Source of the DNA: an archaeon
GTDB taxonomy: Archaea > Nanobdellota > Nanobdellia > Woesearchaeales > GW2011-AR15
Length of the DNA: 60,266 nt
Assembly: GCA_018671515.1 (NCBI GenBank)
Contig: JABHHN010000047.1
Location: forward strand, 1-60,266
Direction of reading: 5' to 3'
The position numbers and the translations under genes are program-made. The notes beneath the pieces are model-generated. The model worked only from the letters and a program-made list of their open reading frames with translations, was not told the DNA's origin and made no database searches. Of the stretch, positions 10,833-22,224 are shown piece by piece (the first letter of the stretch is position 1; the number at the start of each line of letters is the position of its first letter).

Positions 10833-10901
10833 TTTAAATTTTAGAATTATATCTAAATATTTTCTTCATAATTTTTTTATCATTAATCTAAATTTGTCAG
10901 A

Positions 10902-10950
10902 GCAAGGCATCCTGCCTCGCAAATTTCCTGCAGAATGCGAAGCAGACTGC
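10902..10950. repeat. GC-rich double-hairpin intergenic element (copy 2)
   Basis: GC-A-AGGCA-TCC-TGCCT-C-GC then GCAG-AA-TGC-GAA-GCA-GA-CTGC (contains GCGAAGC at 10937-10943), followed by TATGT. Confidence 0.55.
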
Positions 10951-11047
10951 TATGTTTAAAAAATAATGATAAATTAAGATTTAAAAAACCATTAATAAAT
11001 CTTGAAAAACAAAAACATTAAAAGCACATTTATTCTAAATATCATTT

Positions 11048-17310: not shown

Positions 17311-17850
17311 ATGATATTAGATGATTTAAAAGAATTAGAAAAAAAATCAATTACAGTTGGTATTCCTATTATTGGTCCTAATAAAGGTAAATGGTTATAT
17401 GATAAAATTGTAGAATTAAAACCAAAAAATATTCTTGAAATTGGAACTGCAACAGGTTATAGTGGAATAATTCTTGGACATCTAGGTGCAAATTTGACTA
17501 CAATTGACCAGGATAAAAAGGCTCAAGCTGAAGCTAAGAAAAATTTTGATGAATTTAAAATAAATTCAGAAATCATTAATGGTAATGGTGTAGAAGAAGT
17601 AAAAAAATTATCTAAAGAAAAATCAAATGTTTTTGATTTGATTTTTATTGATTTTGCAAAAAAAAGATATATTGATGTTTTAGAATATTGTATTGATTTA
17701 GTCAAAGTTAATGGATATATCATTGCTGATAATATTGATCTTGATGGATGTCAGAATTTCAAGACGGCAGTAATGAATCATCCTAAGTTAAATACTGAAA
17801 TAATTGATATTGAAGATGAATTGAGTTGTAGTGAAAAAATAAAAGATTGA
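17311..17850 (+). CDS. SAM-dependent O-methyltransferase (TrmR/caffeoyl-CoA OMT-like family)
   Basis: IPIIG, ILEIGTATGYSG, FDLIFIDFAK, GYIIADN. ATG at 17311 preferred to the TTG at 17266. Confidence 0.8.
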   Translation: MILDDLKELEKKSITVGIPIIGPNKGKWLYDKIVELKPKNILEIGTATGYSGIILGHLGANLTTIDQDKKAQAEAKKNFDEFKINSEIINGNGVEEVKKLSKEKSNVFDLIFIDFAKKRYIDVLEYCIDLVKVNGYIIADNIDLDGCQNFKTAVMNHPKLNTEIIDIEDELSCSEKIKD

Positions 17851-17899
17851 CAATTATAAGTTAACAATATAAAATATTAGTCAATTCCTTTTTATTAAA

Positions 17900-18556
17900 A
17901 TGATACATGCAGTTATATTTGATATGGATGGAGTTATAGTTCTATCTGAAAGCATCTACACAAAAATATTTGTAGATATGATAAATAGAGATCTTGGCTT
18001 AAAAATTAAAAGTACAGATTTTGAAAAATACAATGGAATAAGATTTGAAAAAAGAATAGAAAATATCTGCTCTGATAATGGAATAAATCTTGAAGATGAA
18101 AAATACATTGAAATGGCAAATAAAGGACGTCATGAATATGCAACAAATTCTATGCAATCATTAAAATTAAACATAGGAATTTTAGATTTCCTAAAAGAAT
18201 TAAAATCAAGAGGAATGCATATAGGTGTTGGATCAAATGGTTCAAAAAAAATTGTAGAAGAATTATTAGTTTCTTTAGGTATCAGAGATTATTTTGAAAG
18301 TGTAATTGCTTTTGAAGATGTTGATCATCCAAAACCTCAACCAGATATTTATTTAGAAAATGCAAACAACCTTTTTGTTGATACACAAGATTGTCTTGTA
18401 TTTGAAGATTCTATAAGTGGAATAACAGCAGCAAAAAGAGCAGGTATGAAATGTGTTGCATTAACTACTACAATGGACCGAATGCAACTAATTGATGCTG
18501 ATCTAATCATTGATAATTTTACAGAAATAGATGTAGATAAACTTGATGAAATTTAA
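17900..18556 (+). CDS. HAD-superfamily phosphatase (beta-PGM-like, subfamily IA)
   Basis: AVIFDMDGV, VGSN, KPQPDIY, VFEDSISGITAA. Confidence 0.9.
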   Translation: MIHAVIFDMDGVIVLSESIYTKIFVDMINRDLGLKIKSTDFEKYNGIRFEKRIENICSDNGINLEDEKYIEMANKGRHEYATNSMQSLKLNIGILDFLKELKSRGMHIGVGSNGSKKIVEELLVSLGIRDYFESVIAFEDVDHPKPQPDIYLENANNLFVDTQDCLVFEDSISGITAAKRAGMKCVALTTTMDRMQLIDADLIIDNFTEIDVDKLDEI

Positions 18557-18626
18557 ATTCTAATATGATAAAATAAGTTATAAATCATAGATAAATATTT
18601 ATATTAAAATTATAATTTATAATAAA

Positions 18627-19949
18627 ATGAAAAAAAGAATAATACTATTTTTTATGATTTTAATTACAATAATTTCTGCTTGTGCTCCTAAAGCTAAAAG
18701 CCCTGAAGCTGCACAAGAAAATGATGGAAAAGAAGAAGCCGCCTTAGGTGTTGGTGAATCTGCACAAGTGACAACAGGTATTAATGATGATGAAATTGAT
18801 CCTGAATTAAAGACTTGTTATGATAAAAGTAAACAAGAACTAAATGAAAAATTAATTAATTTAGATATTACACCAAATGTTGATTTTCAAAGTATGAAAA
18901 TAAACACTTTAATGTCTATGCATAATTGTTATTTAGAGAGCTGTAATAAAATTGAAAATGAAATTAAAAAATTAGATTGCATATCTTCCAATAAAGAATG
19001 GTGTGAAAATATTTTGTGTAATGAACAAGGAGATATTTGCAAATATAGATGCCTTTTATGTAATGGAAAATTTCAATATTTAGCACAAAAATTACCTAAA
19101 ATATGTAACTTTGATAATTTAAATTTTGATATGACTCTTGAAAAAGAATTTTATATCAAAGTAGATGATTTAAAATTATATGATATTTATGATGATTTAA
19201 ACGCTGTTCTAAATAGAAATTTACAATCTGAAGCACTAGCTTATGTAGCAAATTTATTACAACTTAATTATGGTTCTCAGTTTGCGTATCAAAATACATT
19301 AGATTTACTTCAAAAAATAAATCTGGTATATACTTTATTTTCATATAGTGGTGGTGATACTAGTTCTGATGGCGAAGTAATTGTAACAAATTTTGGTGAT
19401 GATGTCGATAAAATAAATGAATTTTTAGATGCTACTGCTAGTGACACGGATTTAAAAACTATACTTGATGTAGGTGTTGGTGGTGCATTTTCACAACCTC
19501 ATGAAAACGAATTAATATTTGGTATTGATCCAATTATTGACTCAGAAATAGAATTACAACGATATTTTGAAGGAACTAATATAGGTTCAAATAAAATTTC
19601 TGAAGGAAATGTGTTACCTGTCATTTTATTTTCTGTTCCTGTAGAAAATATTGAAGATGGAACATTATTTGATACCGTACGAGTTATAAATCCAAAGCCT
19701 ACAGATGTTAAATTAGAAGATTTAATAACAATATCATATAATCTTGCAGGTGATGAATTATTAATTATTTTAGCAGGAGATAATGATCCTAGTTATTATA
19801 CTGATATATTAGATATAAAAGATGAAAATATTGTAAGAAAAACTGCTGAAAATGTATTTAAAGAATATGGTATAAGAAGTTATCATCCTTTAATACCCTG
19901 TTCAGATTCTCAAGTAGGTTGTTTTGATATAATTACGATTAAAAAATAA
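18627..19949 (+). CDS. Putative lipoprotein with Cys-rich N-terminal domain
   Basis: MKKR + hydrophobic core + ISA-C lipobox; about nine further Cys in the following ~140 aa; acidic C-terminal domain. Confidence 0.65.
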   Translation: MKKRIILFFMILITIISACAPKAKSPEAAQENDGKEEAALGVGESAQVTTGINDDEIDPELKTCYDKSKQELNEKLINLDITPNVDFQSMKINTLMSMHNCYLESCNKIENEIKKLDCISSNKEWCENILCNEQGDICKYRCLLCNGKFQYLAQKLPKICNFDNLNFDMTLEKEFYIKVDDLKLYDIYDDLNAVLNRNLQSEALAYVANLLQLNYGSQFAYQNTLDLLQKINLVYTLFSYSGGDTSSDGEVIVTNFGDDVDKINEFLDATASDTDLKTILDVGVGGAFSQPHENELIFGIDPIIDSEIELQRYFEGTNIGSNKISEGNVLPVILFSVPVENIEDGTLFDTVRVINPKPTDVKLEDLITISYNLAGDELLIILAGDNDPSYYTDILDIKDENIVRKTAENVFKEYGIRSYHPLIPCSDSQVGCFDIITIKK

Positions 19950-19987
19950 AACATACTTTTTTTAATATTATTATATTTTGATGAATT

Positions 19988-20052
19988 ATGATTAAAGGAA
20001 TTATTTTTGATAACAGAGCGAAGCGTGTTTTCAAATATCTGGAGTTTTATCT
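19988..20052 (+). repeat. 65-nt hairpin unit / 22-codon upstream ORF copying the start of the HAD gene at 20053
   Basis: ATG ATT AAA GGA ATT ATT TTT GAT (MIKGIIFD) + AACAGAGCGAAGCGTGTT + inverted copy TTCAAATATC-TGGAG-TTTTATC-T. Mini-ORF 19988..20056 stops in ATGA with the gene start. Confidence 0.85.
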
Positions 20053-20697
20053 ATGATAAAAGGAGTGATATTTGATATGGATGGTGTTATTATTGATTCT
20101 GCTAATCTTCATTTAAAAGCATGGCAAATATTTCTAAAAAAACATGGAAAAGAGCATACCAAAGAAGAATTTCAAAAATATTTTGGTATGGCTAATAAAG
20201 AATTATTTCAAATACTACTCCCTGAAGCAAAAAAAGAAGATTATAGAAAACTTGATGATGAAAAAGAAGCAATATATAGAGATTTAGCAAATATTGAATT
20301 AAATGAACTTTCTGGTGCAAAAAAATTAATAAAAAAATTATATGATAATGGATTTAAATTAATTGTAGGTTCTTCTGGTCATCCCGAAAATATAGAATTT
20401 AATTTAAATAAACTAAATTTATCAAAATATTTCCAAGGATATGTCAGTAATCATGAAGTTGAAAAAGGAAAACCAGCACCTGATATATTTTTAAAATGTG
20501 CACAAAAATTAAAATTAAATCCTAATGAATGTATTGTAATTGAAGATGCACATCATGGAATTGATGCGGCTAATAATGCTGAAATGAAATGTATCGCAAT
20601 AACTTCTACACATGATAAAGAAAAATTAAAAGATGCAGACTTAATTGTTGATACACTAAATGAAATCACAATACAAAAAATAAAAGAACTAGAATGA
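20053..20697 (+). CDS. HAD-superfamily phosphatase (beta-PGM-like)
   Basis: GVIFDMDGV, VGSSG, GKPAPDIF, VIEDAHHG. Confidence 0.9.
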   Translation: MIKGVIFDMDGVIIDSANLHLKAWQIFLKKHGKEHTKEEFQKYFGMANKELFQILLPEAKKEDYRKLDDEKEAIYRDLANIELNELSGAKKLIKKLYDNGFKLIVGSSGHPENIEFNLNKLNLSKYFQGYVSNHEVEKGKPAPDIFLKCAQKLKLNPNECIVIEDAHHGIDAANNAEMKCIAITSTHDKEKLKDADLIVDTLNEITIQKIKELE

Positions 20698-20823
20698 TAA
20701 TAAGAATAATATTTGATACCGTAATGAAGTTCGTTTTCAAAAATCAAGGTGAGAATCTTTGATTCGAGGCGTTATTTTCGATAACAGAGCGAAGCGAGTT
20801 TTCAAATATCAGGAGTTTTATCT
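20694..20823 (+). repeat. Two tandem 65-nt units (one degenerate, one conserved) upstream of the HAD gene at 20824
   Basis: 20694-20758 encodes MIIRIIFDTVMKFVFKNQGENL*; 20759-20823 (TTG start) encodes (M)IRGVIFDNRAKRVFKYQEFYL*. 20009-20099 and 20780-20870 are identical except for 4 of 91 nt. Confidence 0.85.
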
Positions 20824-21501
20824 ATGATAAAAGGAGTGATATTTGATATGGATGGAGTAATTATTGATTCAAATCATATCATTTTTGAAAACTGGAGTGT
20901 TATTTTTAAAAAAAAGTTCAATAAAATAATTGATAAAAAAGAATTTGCAATGCACTTGGGAGAAAGTGCAAAACATTTTTTGGAATTTTTTGTTGAAAAA
21001 TTTGAACTAAATGTTTCAAATGAAAATTTATTATTAGAATTAAAAAATAATTATAGGCAAAATTTGGAACATAAAATAATCTTAAAAAAAAGTGTCATAA
21101 AAACACTAAAAATGTTAAAAGAAAATAACTATAAAACTGCTCTTGCAACTGGAGCAAATAAAGATACTGCATTAAGAGTTATAAAAAAATTTGAAATTGA
21201 AAAATATTTTGATTATATAATTGGTGGAGATGAAGTAAAAAGAGCTAAACCAAATCCTGAAATTTTCCTAAAGGCAGCACAAGGTCTAAAATTAAAACCT
21301 AATGAATGTATAGTAATCGAAGATGCAAAAAAAGGAATAATTGCTGCAAACTCTGCAAATATCAAAGTTATTTCAATTCCTGATGATATAACAAAATATC
21401 AAGATCATAGTATTGCAGATTTCCATCTAAAATCTATGAATGAATTAAATTTTGAATTTATAATGAGTATAATTCAACACAAAAAGAGTAAAAATTCATG
21501 A
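20824..21501 (+). CDS. HAD-superfamily phosphatase (beta-PGM-like)
   Basis: GVIFDMDGV, LATGA, AKPNPEIF, VIEDAKKG. Confidence 0.9.
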   Translation: MIKGVIFDMDGVIIDSNHIIFENWSVIFKKKFNKIIDKKEFAMHLGESAKHFLEFFVEKFELNVSNENLLLELKNNYRQNLEHKIILKKSVIKTLKMLKENNYKTALATGANKDTALRVIKKFEIEKYFDYIIGGDEVKRAKPNPEIFLKAAQGLKLKPNECIVIEDAKKGIIAANSANIKVISIPDDITKYQDHSIADFHLKSMNELNFEFIMSIIQHKKSKNS

Positions 21502-21546
21502 TTTTTAGTACAATAATTTAATAAATAAGAACATATTTATGTATAC

Positions 21547-22224
21547 ATGACCATTGAAAATAAACAAATTCTAAAATATCAAAGACAAATAATTAAAACT
21601 GATGATTCCTATACCCATAAAATACCTTGCTTTTCAAAAACATATGAATTTAAACACCAATCAATATTAAGTAAAGATGATGAATTTAATGACATTTTTA
21701 CTACTTGTTCAAATTATTTATTAGATTCAGAACATTCAATAAGAGTCAGTGTCTTAATTGAAAAATTTTCCGAATTATTAAATCTCCCAAATAACTTATG
21801 TTTGGATTTTAAAAAATTCTCACTTATCCACGATGTTGGAAAATTATTAATTAACCCAGACATATTAAATAAACCAGGTAAATTATCTGAAGAAGAATAT
21901 GAAATTGTTAAAAAACACTCAGAATTAGGCGCTGAAATAATTGGAGATGATCCTTTTTTCAAAACAGGTAAAGATATTTCTCTTTATCACCATGAAAGAT
22001 ATGATGGACAAGGTTATCCAAGAAAAATAAATGGAAATAGTATTCCAATTTCTGCTAGAATTTTATCTATTATTGATGTATATGATGGACTTACTTCTGA
22101 TAGAGTTTATAGAAAAGCTTTACCATTATCAGAAGCAATTAACATAATGAAAGAAATGACTGGAAAGTTTGACCCTATATTTTTTAAAATATTTTTAACA
22201 AATATTCAAAATTTAATAGAATGA
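21547..22224 (+). CDS. Stand-alone HD-GYP domain phosphodiesterase
   Basis: EHSIRV, IHDVGK, LNKPGKL, KKHSELG, HHERYDGQGYP, IPISARILSIIDVYDGLTSDRVYRKA: all metal ligands present. Confidence 0.9.
   Translation: MTIENKQILKYQRQIIKTDDSYTHKIPCFSKTYEFKHQSILSKDDEFNDIFTTCSNYLLDSEHSIRVSVLIEKFSELLNLPNNLCLDFKKFSLIHDVGKLLINPDILNKPGKLSEEEYEIVKKHSELGAEIIGDDPFFKTGKDISLYHHERYDGQGYPRKINGNSIPISARILSIIDVYDGLTSDRVYRKALPLSEAINIMKEMTGKFDPIFFKIFLTNIQNLIE

Follow-up and report, generated by a model that had tools for sequence, protein, structure and literature searches.

Start-duplicating hairpin cassettes with putative relay mini-ORFs at two unrelated gene families of Woesearchaeota-type archaea

Introduction

Why should the first codons of a gene be found three times, twice in direct and once in inverted orientation, within less than one hundred nucleotides? 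This question is raised by a locus of a Woesearchaeales archaeon (assembly GCA_018671515.1, contig JABHHN010000047.1, positions 1 to 60,266, the whole stretch analysed here being referred to as the window), in which two genes coding for HAD phosphatases are preceded by one and two short units, respectively. In a sequence-only reading of this region, each unit was described as a copy of the gene 5' end, a loop with the heptamer GCGAAGC and an inverted copy of the same 5' end, and it was proposed that the units might represent a self-propagating snap-back insertion regenerating gene starts and/or a translational switch opened by ribosomes on a decoy ORF. The observation itself is confirmed, whereas the interpretation is only partly supported, as detailed below.

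Results and Discussion

Structure of the units. The features of the locus are listed in Table 1. The three units (A, B, and C) are each 65 nt long and correspond to ORFs of 22 codons whose TGA overlaps the next start (ATGA, TTGA, and ATGA, respectively); since the stop codon of HAD1 overlaps the ATG of unit B, the chain HAD1-B-C-HAD2 is unbroken. In each unit it is possible to recognize a copy of the old start (S), a small stem-loop (L), which is degenerate and lacks GCGAAGC in unit B, and an anti-start segment that folds over the next start codon. As had been described, the anti-start pairs with the real start through 9-10 bp plus 7 bp, with the AUG at the apical loop and GGAG facing GGAG in an internal loop. 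This is the minimum free energy fold, both for 57 nt (-13.0 kcal/mol, z -2.7) and for unit C plus the HAD2 start (-22.8 kcal/mol, z -3.0).

Table 1. Features of the HAD1/HAD2 locus (positions of the window).
Positions	Strand	Feature	Description
17900..18556	+	Third HAD paralogue	Without a unit; orthologous to the HAD gene that directly precedes the units in genome G002
19961..19968	+	TATA-like TTTAATAT	20-27 nt upstream of the ATG of unit A; possible archaeal promoter that would give a leaderless mRNA starting at the decoy ATG (inferred from the usual spacing of archaeal promoters, not tested)
19988..20052	+	Unit A	S (old-start copy) 19988-20011; L (AACAGAGCGAAGCGTGTT) 20012-20029; anti-start with SD GGAG 20030-20052
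19988..20056	+	Relay mini-ORF A	MIKGIIFDNRAKRVFKYLEFYL; its TGA overlaps the HAD1 ATG
20001..20099	+	Exchange tract	About 96% identical to 20772-20870; runs from the end of S through L, the anti-start and the new start to codon ~16; flanks only 35-50% identical
20031..20075	+	Start-sequestering hairpin of HAD1	TCAAATATC/GATATTTGA plus TTTTATC/GATAAAA, AUG in the apical loop
20053..20697	+	HAD1	Beta-phosphoglucomutase-family HAD-IA hydrolase
20694..20758	+	Unit B	T-type with a degenerate stem-loop; orthologous to unit 1 of genomes G002 and G011; mini-ORF 20694-20762 starts on the HAD1 stop and ends on the TTG of unit C; carries the SD GGTGA
20759..20823	+	Unit C	S = ancestral HAD2 start (TTG) 20759-20782; L (AACAGAGCGAAGCGAGTT) 20783-20800; anti-start with SD 20801-20823; mini-ORF 20759-20827
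20802..20846	+	Start-sequestering hairpin of HAD2	10 bp plus 7 bp
20824..21501	+	HAD2	Beta-phosphoglucomutase-family HAD-IA hydrolase, about 37% identical to HAD1

The possibility that the units are an assembly artefact, which had been indicated beforehand as part of what would disprove the proposal, was examined and rejected, since an independent ENA metagenome scaffold (L048, 912 nt) carries the whole arrangement, from unit A through HAD1, B, and C to the HAD2 start, with a single mismatch. Besides, no known RNA family accounts for the units: the comparison with Rfam 15 gave no relevant hit at E<=1 in 17500-22000 and none at gathering score in the whole window. A 14-nt match exists between unit B (20710) and position 19666, inside the upstream ORF; it was not pursued, a match of this length being not unlikely by chance in DNA with 27% G+C.

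The heptamer GCGAAGC. d(GCGAAGC) is an extra-stable DNA mini-hairpin, and the sequence-only reading assigned it a special role, which is not supported. It caps L in units A and C, and in the sequences G019 and L145; however, it occurs 24 times in the 1.88-Mb genome, that is, what is predicted from base composition (about 24), and about half of the other copies cap hairpins of an unrelated repeat family of ~70 nt. Moreover, homologous units carry GAAA, GCAA, GGA, GAGUA, or UGCAG loops instead, so that the heptamer is one of several stable caps and not the functional core.

Distribution of the units. A genome-wide search for similar arrangements at other genes had been suggested as a check on the proposal, the lack of other instances being named among the conditions for discarding it. 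By blastn-short, no further full-length copy of the unit was found in this genome, in which analogous start duplications with other inserts do exist. However, 19 homologous units were disclosed in 11 Woesearchaeota-type genomes plus one metagenome contig, belonging to two GTDB families (f1 and f94). They are located in front of HAD phosphatase genes and of an unrelated gene, referred to as FDTGP, and all of them follow a Phe/Leu-Asp codon pair (one Phe-Asn). Different types exist, i.e., the N-type (AAC..GCGAAGC..GTT), the T-type (ACTT..AAGT), and others. The units are present or absent among FDTGP orthologues within one genus, and 14 of the 19 FDTGP orthologues found in the family lack them. 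No solo or intergenic copies were found by blastn, by a covariance model search of 401 genomes, or by pattern scans. Three of four metagenome matches lie in unrelated contexts of higher G+C. A viral origin was rejected as well, since the only viral-contig match to the N-type pattern lies in an unrelated repeat region of higher G+C, and the T-type pattern gave none.

Conservation of the relay architecture and of the hairpin. In all the 18 units that were tabulated, the decoy ORF ends -3 to +10 nt from the next start, 13 of them as ATGA/TTGA, although the length of the units varies (47, 49, 50, 62, 64, and 65 nt, and one of 63); in most units, the other two frames stop within 0-7 codons. The anti-start/next-start fold has a mean z of -3.2 over 19 units (15 of them below -2.4), against -1.0 for decoy plus L plus anti-start. 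In an alignment of 10 units, 78% of the cells are paired, against 36-52% in slid controls, and the outer helix is 90% paired, with three pairs changed on both sides. The complement tracks the downstream S, as in CAAAAAGAATA/TATTCTTTTTG, CAAAAAAGAG/CTCTTTTTTG, and TCGAAAA/TTTTCGA. The L stems also covary and carry GNRA-type loops. Across three genera, S and the anti-start of unit B are each 79-92% identical in nucleotides, against 63-65% for the HAD2 coding sequence.

Polarity of the insertion. The comparison with orthologues, which had been proposed as a further test for those lacking the units, allowed establishing which of the starts is the older one. In genome G011, the HAD2-type gene really starts at TTGATACGAGGCATTATTTTCGAT-ATGGACGG, preceded by one 65-nt unit; this start is orthologous to the decoy of unit C, and both the window and genome G002 harbor an extra cassette after that same start. 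Hence, the decoy of unit C is the ancestral HAD2 start, cut off after codon 8. The differences between decoy and gene had been described as mostly synonymous, and they are better explained by the decoy having been a real coding start until the insertion. Thus, the idea that the units are insertions that leave an old start behind and regenerate the gene start is supported.

Exchange between loci. A tract of ~100 nt (Table 1) has been exchanged between HAD1 and HAD2, whose proteins are only 37% identical; this copy looks like gene conversion between paralogues. In genome G014, the FDTGP locus holds a decoy equal to the start of the HAD gene of the same genome, located 413 kb away (23/24). Furthermore, L of unit C is identical (18/18) to L at an FDTGP gene of an organism whose FDTGP protein is only 56% identical to that of this genome. 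This identity is stronger than a simple hairpin constraint predicts, and it hints at mobility or at an unknown sequence-specific factor. In G019 and L145, the two direct copies of S are identical (24/24) while the anti-start is imperfect, which needs either a very recent insertion or concerted evolution; the three copies evolve in concert, with TTC/G in G019 and TTT/A in L145 in all three segments.

A model for the origin and function of the units. On the basis of these data, it is somewhat more likely than not that each unit is the remnant of a 5'-end replacement, spread by recombination and kept as an obligatory translational relay. In this view, a cassette of ~41 nt, holding L and an anti-start with a Shine-Dalgarno sequence, was placed immediately after the eighth codon of the resident gene (the Phe-Asp pair TTYGAY), followed by a fresh copy of the start codon plus seven codons. 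The resident start, cut off from the gene body, would still be translated, either from a leaderless 5' end or by coupling to the upstream gene, giving a mini-ORF of 16-25 codons that reads through L and the anti-start and stops on or next to the new start. Free ribosomes could not initiate at the new start, which is paired with the anti-start, whereas ribosomes translating the mini-ORF would melt the hairpin and reinitiate, so that the real gene would be expressed only through termination-reinitiation and each added unit would be one more, probably attenuating, relay step. The cassette types would have moved between HAD paralogues and between HAD and FDTGP genes, both families beginning with M-x-x-h-h-h-F-D, most likely by gene conversion or template switching at the shared TTYGAY microhomology and at the direct repeats, and not by a dedicated transposase. 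However, the transfer from HAD to FDTGP has homology on one side only (TTYGAY), so that plain gene conversion is not sufficient. The anatomy of the units, their conservation and covariation, the empty and filled orthologous sites, and the exchange tracts come directly from the sequences, while the translation of the mini-ORFs, the coupling enforced by the hairpin, and the way in which the cassettes have spread are inferences, since neither expression nor dependence of the downstream gene on upstream translation was measured, and reads were not mapped for expression or polymorphism. Termination-reinitiation at ATGA overlaps is established in archaea (PMC6728339, PMC10666635).

Comparison with known translational systems. 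The units share with the coupled ORFs of archaea and bacteria (ATGA, TGATG; PMC6728339, PMC10666635) the co-directional arrangement with 4-nt or 1-nt overlaps, the SD in front of the downstream start, and the chains of ORFs. What differs is that the upstream partner is a 16-25-codon ORF made from a duplicated copy of the first eight codons of the downstream gene, whose start is buried in a hairpin formed by an inverted copy of it; the cassette types, which recur at two unrelated gene families in several genera, do not appear to have been described before. A start sequestered in a hairpin that is opened by ribosomes translating an upstream ORF is found in MS2 coat/replicase, in ribosomal-protein operons, and in ermC/cat leaders, and leaderless short ORFs act as attenuators in mycobacteria (bioRxiv 10.1101/834739). 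Here, instead, there is no sign of a sensed signal, the sequestering strand is a reverse copy of the coding start, the element recurs as a cassette at unrelated genes, and the host is archaeal.

The latter systems suggest that the units might be signal-responsive attenuators, in which the stalling or the speed of ribosomes on the leader peptide would select between decoy:anti-start and anti-start:start pairings and so tune HAD/FDTGP expression. The layout S, anti-S, S allows mutually exclusive hairpins, and the leader peptides are conserved within types, i.e., FDN.(A/V)KRVF(K/E)K and FDT..K.K..N.(G/E)E.L. The alternative pairing of the anti-start with the upstream decoy, pointed out in the sequence-only reading, is possible but weak and not significant (mean z -1.0; unit A alone -8.0 kcal/mol, z +0.2), and it does not allow choosing for or against a competing hairpin of comparable stability; its use as a switch is not supported. 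Signal-dependent stalling was not assayed. In addition, the mini-ORF reads through the whole anti-start, so any translating ribosome would open the hairpin regardless of signal, there is no codon bias pointing to a sensed metabolite, the same cassette serves two functionally unrelated gene families, and many orthologues lack it. This explanation is regarded as unlikely.

A programmed translational bypass, with ribosomes taking off at the Asp codon in front of the stem-loop and landing on the matching Asp codon 47-65 nt downstream to produce the full enzyme, was also considered. The take-off and landing codons do match (GAY/GAY), a stable hairpin directly follows the former, and an SD-like GGAG lies in the gap, a layout resembling that of T4 gene 60 and of byp elements, with a gap of roughly 50-65 nt and an association of the hop element with a mobile element (bioRxiv 10.1101/2022.08.31.505936). 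However, no stop codon follows the take-off codon, the frame stays open to the next start, a canonical SD plus ATG/TTG precedes every landing region, so that reinitiation suffices, and the SD lies about 30 nt, and not about 6 nt, before the landing codon. This possibility is very unlikely.

Are the units neutral scars? The arrangement S/rc(S)/S is that of template-switch (quasipalindrome) mutagenesis and of inverted triplications (DUP-TRP/INV-DUP). The units might be by-products of replication template switching (forward-reverse-forward) at the gene 5' end, tolerated because the gene start is regenerated and without a role of their own. In N- and T-type units, the segment between L and the new start is nearly a full-length reverse complement of S, apart from the SD pentamer, which is the pattern that template switching gives; moreover, the stem-loop of unit B has decayed and many FDTGP orthologues lack units. 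On the other hand, the SD pentamer is not inverted, the arrangement is conserved across genera, the stop is maintained at the next start in 18/18 units across length classes, and nucleotide conservation exceeds that of the coding sequence. The L stem-loop sits at one turn, its stems covary, and its sequences are shared between loci and organisms, so L is not created anew at each site. Neutrality of the units appears improbable.

Are the units mobile elements? A further possibility is that of a genuinely mobile, enzyme-inserted miniature element, whose anti-start would act as a guide complementary to the target (..TTTYGA..) and whose insertion would cause a 21-27-nt duplication of the target, running from the transcript 5' end to the insertion point. 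Besides the identity of L at different gene families of distant organisms and the presence or absence of units within one genus, other data might be in agreement with this idea. Perfect direct repeats of 23-27 nt flank hairpin inserts at three other genes of this genome (C26:95169, C67:12171, and C45:45729), and 6 of 14 tRNAs called by ARAGORN have their 3' end duplicated 96-122 nt downstream. These target-end duplications suggest a more general, possibly enzymatic, insertion process, although their link with the units is speculative. In four independent protein-gene cases, the duplication begins exactly at the ATG. The C26 insert shares a 12-nt loop motif (TCACTAACGTTC/GAACGTTAGTGA) with the tRNA-linked inserts, but this is a general hairpin-loop motif of the order, occurring in many unrelated contexts.

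An enzyme responsible for the insertion, the search for which had been recommended by the sequence-only reading, was not found, and the self-propagating nature of the units is unproven. A search for reverse transcriptase (PF00078) gave no match in this genome (G000), which is 90% complete, so that retro-insertion was rejected. The IS200/IS605 type (target TTGAT-like, ssDNA hairpins) was rejected because Y1 transposase (PF01797) does not track the units, being absent from five unit-bearing genomes (G000, G014, G018, G019, and G006) and abundant in unit-free ones (present in G009, G003, and G013). Only three tyrosine recombinases are present, and an att scar of a site-specific integrase was rejected because the targets differ in sequence and the duplications vary in length (19 to 47 nt), which is also unlike a transposase ruler. 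The HAD1/HAD2 exchange extends 23 nt beyond S into the gene, as in homologous conversion. A CRISPR-like array, or off-target Cas1 integration, does not fit either, since the putative spacers (L plus anti-start) of units A, B, and C are homologous to each other (repeat families D3 and D8); cas1 and cas2 were not checked genome-wide. A bulge-helix-bulge intron was excluded by inspection, without computation, both for the units and for the tRNA-linked inserts: the T-loop junction cannot form the 4-bp central helix, and excising 65 or 130 nt would not fuse HAD1 to HAD2. On the whole, a mobile element is a doubtful explanation.

The units can also be compared with small palindromic insertions tolerated in or near genes, such as Rickettsia palindromic elements, IS200/IS605-derived PATEs, and MITEs (PMC11602168). 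As in these elements, the units are tens of nucleotides long, form hairpins, occur in multiple insertions, and preserve gene function. Unlike the Rickettsia elements, they are not in-frame inserts read as part of the host protein, their lengths, except for the one of 63 nt, not being a multiple of 3 and each providing a new start instead. They have no terminal inverted repeats of fixed sequence, are not dispersed in intergenic DNA, being found only at HAD and FDTGP gene starts, are flanked by a 21-24-nt duplication of the gene start, and show no link to Y1 transposase.

It is possible, even though doubtful, that the units are one face of a previously unrecognized insertion process of Woesearchaeota-type DPANN archaea, in which tiny hairpin cassettes would be placed, guided by a target-complementary segment, near the ends of transcription units (mRNA 5' ends and tRNA 3' ends), each insertion duplicating 19-47 nt of the target, so that the gene end is regenerated. 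At protein genes, the survivors would be those that build a relay mini-ORF. If so, this would be a new class of miniature mobile element, with a new enzyme or repair pathway behind it.

Conclusions

For the annotation of these genomes, the finding warns that the 5' ends of HAD and FDTGP genes in these MAGs can be mis-called and that assemblies break at these repeats. If the relay reading holds, the units are a compact natural device for obligatory translational coupling, in which the first codons of a gene are reused three times, as decoy, as anti-start, and as real start, and they provide a directly testable case of hairpin-enforced termination-reinitiation in archaea, where very few cis-regulatory leaders are known. 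They would also show how small archaeal genomes tolerate, and perhaps exploit, insertions at gene starts. The spread of identical stem-loops across loci, together with the many gene-end duplications at tRNAs and other genes of the same genome, points to an uncharacterized mechanism of small-scale genome change in DPANN archaea.

The HAD locus

The region reads exactly as the sequence-only reading described it. Three 65-nt units (A, B and C) are present, each of which begins with a copy of the first eight codons of a HAD gene. In units A and C, this copy (S) is followed by AAC-AGAGCGAAGCG(T/A)-GTT and then by a segment (the anti-start) that is the reverse complement of the real gene start, apart from a GGAG pentamer. 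Each unit opens a 22-codon ORF whose TGA overlaps the next start, and the stop of HAD1 overlaps the ATG of unit B, resulting in an unbroken chain HAD1 -> B -> C -> HAD2. RNA folding places the real AUG in the apical loop of a hairpin of 9-10 bp plus 7 bp; the 57-nt fold has -13.0 kcal/mol (z -2.7), and unit C plus the HAD2 start has -22.8 kcal/mol (z -3.0). The pairing of the anti-start with the upstream decoy, proposed as an alternative fold in the same reading, is weak (-8.0 kcal/mol, z +0.2).

An assembly artefact had been put forward in advance as one of the conditions that together would refute the reading; however, an independently assembled metagenome scaffold (L048) carries the same A-HAD1-B-C-HAD2 arrangement with one mismatch, and the units are therefore not an artefact of this kind. 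The genome under study (G000), that of a Woesearchaeota-type DPANN archaeon, is 1.88 Mb long, with 27% G+C, and is split into 120 contigs. The heptamer GCGAAGC, to which a special role as an extra-stable mini-hairpin had been attributed, occurs 24 times in it, which is what composition predicts. About half of these heptamers cap a stem (aGAGCGAAGCUCu, uGAGCGAAGCUCa) inside a repeat family of about 70 nt with multiple hairpins, whose ends look like ..CAUAGCA ... UGCUAUG and which has no Rfam match in the window. The genome-wide search for further copies, which had been suggested as a check, disclosed no other full-length unit in the genome, and Rfam has no match at the HAD locus. An exact 14-nt match (TATTTGATACCGTA) exists between unit B and the interior of the upstream ORF, possibly by chance in DNA of 27% G+C. 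The coordinates of all these features are reported in the following table.

Coordinates of the units and of the other features described in the text (contigs belong to G000 unless otherwise stated)
Feature	Sequence	Coordinates	Strand
Unit A	window	19988-20052	
Unit B	window	20694-20758	
Unit C	window	20759-20823	
Tract shared by HAD1 and HAD2	window	20001-20099 against 20772-20870	
HAD cluster compared with G002:C12 and G011:C6	window	17900-21501	
440-aa ORF upstream of HAD1	window	18627-19949	
14-nt match, in unit B and in the upstream ORF	window	20710-20723 and 19666-19679	
Duplicated start, PduO-type cobalamin adenosyltransferase	C26	95169-95266	
Duplicated start, GAPDH-like	C67	12171-12290	minus
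Duplicated start, 4Fe-4S protein	C45	45729-45880	
tRNA genes with duplicated 3' ends	G000 contigs	C20:23960-24143, C69:23468-23649, C28:2169-2330, C86:44215-44370, C53:22658-22960, C53:20483-20751, C2:13777-13989, C49:3307-3440, C27:7727-7900	
Repeat family of about 70 nt with GCGAAGC caps	window and G000 contigs	window 10897-10984; C99:1788, C26:95102, C51:8437, C119:47887, C69:27817, C67:9175, C100:3245, C117:42214, C40:3321, C72:23340, C36:24111, C17:2708	
Identical 66-nt tandem repeats at contig ends	C17 and C41	1-130 and 72-270	
Viral short-repeat cluster	L148 (IMGVR_UViG_3300011892_000036)	1700-2130	

Conservation of the units at HAD genes

Tandem HAD genes are common in the family. In G002 (a genome of another genus), the stop of a HAD gene overlaps the ATG of a 65-nt unit whose ends are nearly identical to those of unit B, but whose centre is a perfect hairpin, ACTTACC-GAGTA-GGTAAGT; a second, 49-nt unit follows, and then the HAD2-type gene. 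In the genome G011 there is one such unit, and the real HAD2-type gene starts TTGATACGAGGCATTATTTTCGAT-ATGGACGG. This start is orthologous to the 'decoy' of unit C (TTGATTCGAGGCGTTATTTTCGAT) and to that of the second unit of G002. Hence, the comparison with orthologues, which had also been suggested as a check, revealed that in the window and, independently, in G002, the ancestral HAD2 start was cut off after codon 8, i.e., between FD and MDG, the inserted material being a stem-loop, an anti-start with a Shine-Dalgarno sequence (SD), and a new start plus 7 codons. Across the three genera, the S and anti-start parts of unit B are 79-92% identical in nucleotides, while the HAD2 coding sequence is only 63-65% identical (48-53% in protein). 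The gene order around the HAD cluster differs between genera: the window has HAD(a), then a 440-aa ORF with no Pfam match, then HAD1 and then HAD2; G002 has HAD(a) and then HAD2; G011 has HAD2 and then HAD1.

Units at a second gene family

The same cassette types are located in front of an unrelated, uncharacterised gene (FDTGP), whose N-terminus is M(V)KALVFDTGPLI, which has no Pfam, NCBIfam or PDB match, and which is normally coupled to an upstream partner gene. Units occur there in the genomes G014 (two), G019, G018, G006 and G004, whereas fourteen other family members have the empty site, including two genomes of the same genus (G011, G016) and this genome's own copy.

In order to search for further units, a covariance model was built from ten units and run on 401 genomes of the order. 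Further units were found only in families f1 and f94, at HAD genes of the FDFWGTL type and at FDTGP genes (G202, G409 and G348 in f94, and G006 in f1); since the model includes the S segment, it is biased towards HAD-like and FDTGP-like starts. A pattern scan of metagenomes found an FDTGP gene (L145) whose unit has a stem-loop identical, 18/18, to that of unit C, even though the FDTGP protein of that organism is only 56% identical to that of this genome.

Common anatomy of the units

All of the 19 units follow a Phe/Leu-Asp codon pair (one degenerate unit has Phe-Asn), and their lengths are 47-65 nt. In all 18 tabulated units the decoy ORF ends -3 to +10 nt from the next start, 13 of them as ATGA/TTGA, and in most units the other two frames stop within 0-7 codons. 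The stem-loop (L) has covarying stems (AAC..GTT, ACTT..AAGT, TCTTTCC..GGAAAGG and GTTTGTC..GACAAGC) and stable caps (GCGAAGC, GAAA, GCAA, GGA, GAGUA and UGCAG). The GCGAAGC cap is therefore one option, not the core.

The anti-start is complementary over 7-12 nt, often perfectly, to the downstream S and not to the upstream decoy, and it covaries with the former. The anti-start/next-start fold has a mean z of -3.2 (15 of 19 units below -2.4), while the decoy-containing unit alone has a mean z of -1.0. A signal-responsive switch is not favoured, because the competing decoy pairing is weak and any translating ribosome would open the hairpin. In the ten-unit alignment 78% of cells are paired, against 36-52% in slid controls, and the outer helix is 90% paired, with three pairs changed on both sides; the sample is small and the sequences are related, so this is supporting evidence and not decisive. 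The sample of units as a whole is likewise small and phylogenetically clustered.

Evidence of movement

HAD1 and HAD2 are 37% identical as proteins; nevertheless, they share a tract of about 100 nt that is 96% identical, running from the end of S through L, the anti-start and the new start to about codon 16, with flanks only 35-50% identical. That is a gene-conversion or recombination tract between paralogues. In G014, the middle decoy at the FDTGP locus (ATGATACGAGGAGTGATTTTTGAC) equals the start of that genome's HAD gene 413 kb away (23/24). Both the N-type and the T-type stem-loops (AAC..GTT and ACTT..AAGT, respectively) occur at both gene families. G019 and L145 carry orthologous N-type units, in which the Phe codon is TTC in both S copies with G in the anti-start in one, and TTT with A in the other; all three segments change together.

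The sequence-only reading proposed a self-propagating insertion and recommended a search for an HUH nuclease or a reverse transcriptase, but no driving enzyme was found. No reverse transcriptase was detected in this genome, which has three tyrosine recombinases, and the IS200-type Y1 transposase is absent from five unit-bearing genomes and abundant in unit-free ones. No solo or intergenic cassette turned up in the searches of this genome, of the genomes of the order and of metagenomes. One viral-contig match appears to be an unrelated repeat; the viral contig L148 has a cluster of GCGAAGCG-containing short repeats (acggagcgaagcgagttttcgaag and similar) in a non-coding stretch, which appears unrelated to the archaeal units. 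The simplest mechanism for the spread is recombination or template switching at the shared TTYGAY microhomology and at the direct repeats, although this is an inference.

Other gene-end duplications in the same genome

A scan for duplicated gene starts disclosed three more protein genes with perfect 23-27-nt duplications of their start region, separated by 27-75-nt hairpin inserts. In the PduO-type adenosyltransferase gene of C26, the repeat is 27 nt long with a period of 71, the insert contains an inverted copy of the target, and the decoy ORF stops 2 nt before the real ATG. The C45 locus consists of three tandem 50-nt units, each a 17-codon ORF ending in ATGA. In the GAPDH-like gene of C67, the repeat is 23 nt long with a period of 98, the decoy ORF stops about 35 nt upstream, and the real start has its own SD.

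Moreover, 6 of 14 ARAGORN-called tRNAs, and several more found by repeat scanning, have their 3' end duplicated 96-125 nt downstream, from mid T-loop to just past the oligo-T (19-47 nt). The duplicates flank a conserved insert, which holds a hairpin with a covarying stem and a conserved 12-nt loop, GAACGTTAGTGA, plus a segment complementary to the T-loop that covaries with the target (TTCGAAT against TTCAAAT); at tRNA-Ser the unit is tandem. The C26 insert has that loop in reverse complement. We came to no decision as to whether these duplications share a mechanism with the HAD units, and they are the main reason for keeping an enzyme-driven insertion process as the leading rival explanation. 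The loop motif, A(G/T)GAAC-NNN-AGTGA(C/A), is a general hairpin-loop motif of the order, recurrent in Woesearchaeales genomes (49 of 401), multi-copy in this genome, in G039 (14 copies, many at contig ends) and in G241 (6 copies), and found, among others, in G061 and G024. In G039 it lies in a multi-copy element of about 200 nt that also carries the motif in inverted orientation, and no Rfam family matches it. The identical 66-nt tandem repeats at the ends of C17 and C41 are in reverse-complement orientation to each other and are probably one repeat array that broke the assembly.

Interpretation

The interpretation given in the sequence-only reading, i.e., a self-propagating snap-back insertion that regenerates gene starts and/or a translational switch opened by ribosomes on the decoy ORF, is supported only in part. 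The arrangement of the units and their recurrence were observed directly in the sequences, whereas the mechanism of their origin and spread is inferred from sequence patterns only. That the relay is under selection is argued by the stop always being at the next start across length classes, by a nucleotide conservation higher than that of the enzyme gene, and by a hairpin that is significant and covaries. No expression data were obtained. Whether the relay also regulates expression is open, the possibilities being attenuation per unit or balancing of the FDTGP gene against its partner; a translational bypass is formally possible but unnecessary.

The best-supported reading is that of a 5'-end replacement cassette whose survivors are those that keep the gene expressed. 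In this view, the old start still captures ribosomes: at unit A it lies 20-27 nt downstream of a TATA-like TTTAATAT, which would fit a leaderless mRNA (inferred), while elsewhere it sits on the stop of the upstream gene. The mini-ORF would carry ribosomes through the anti-start, melting the hairpin that hides the new start, and they would then reinitiate at the ATGA overlap, a mechanism that is established in archaea (PMC6728339, PMC10666635).
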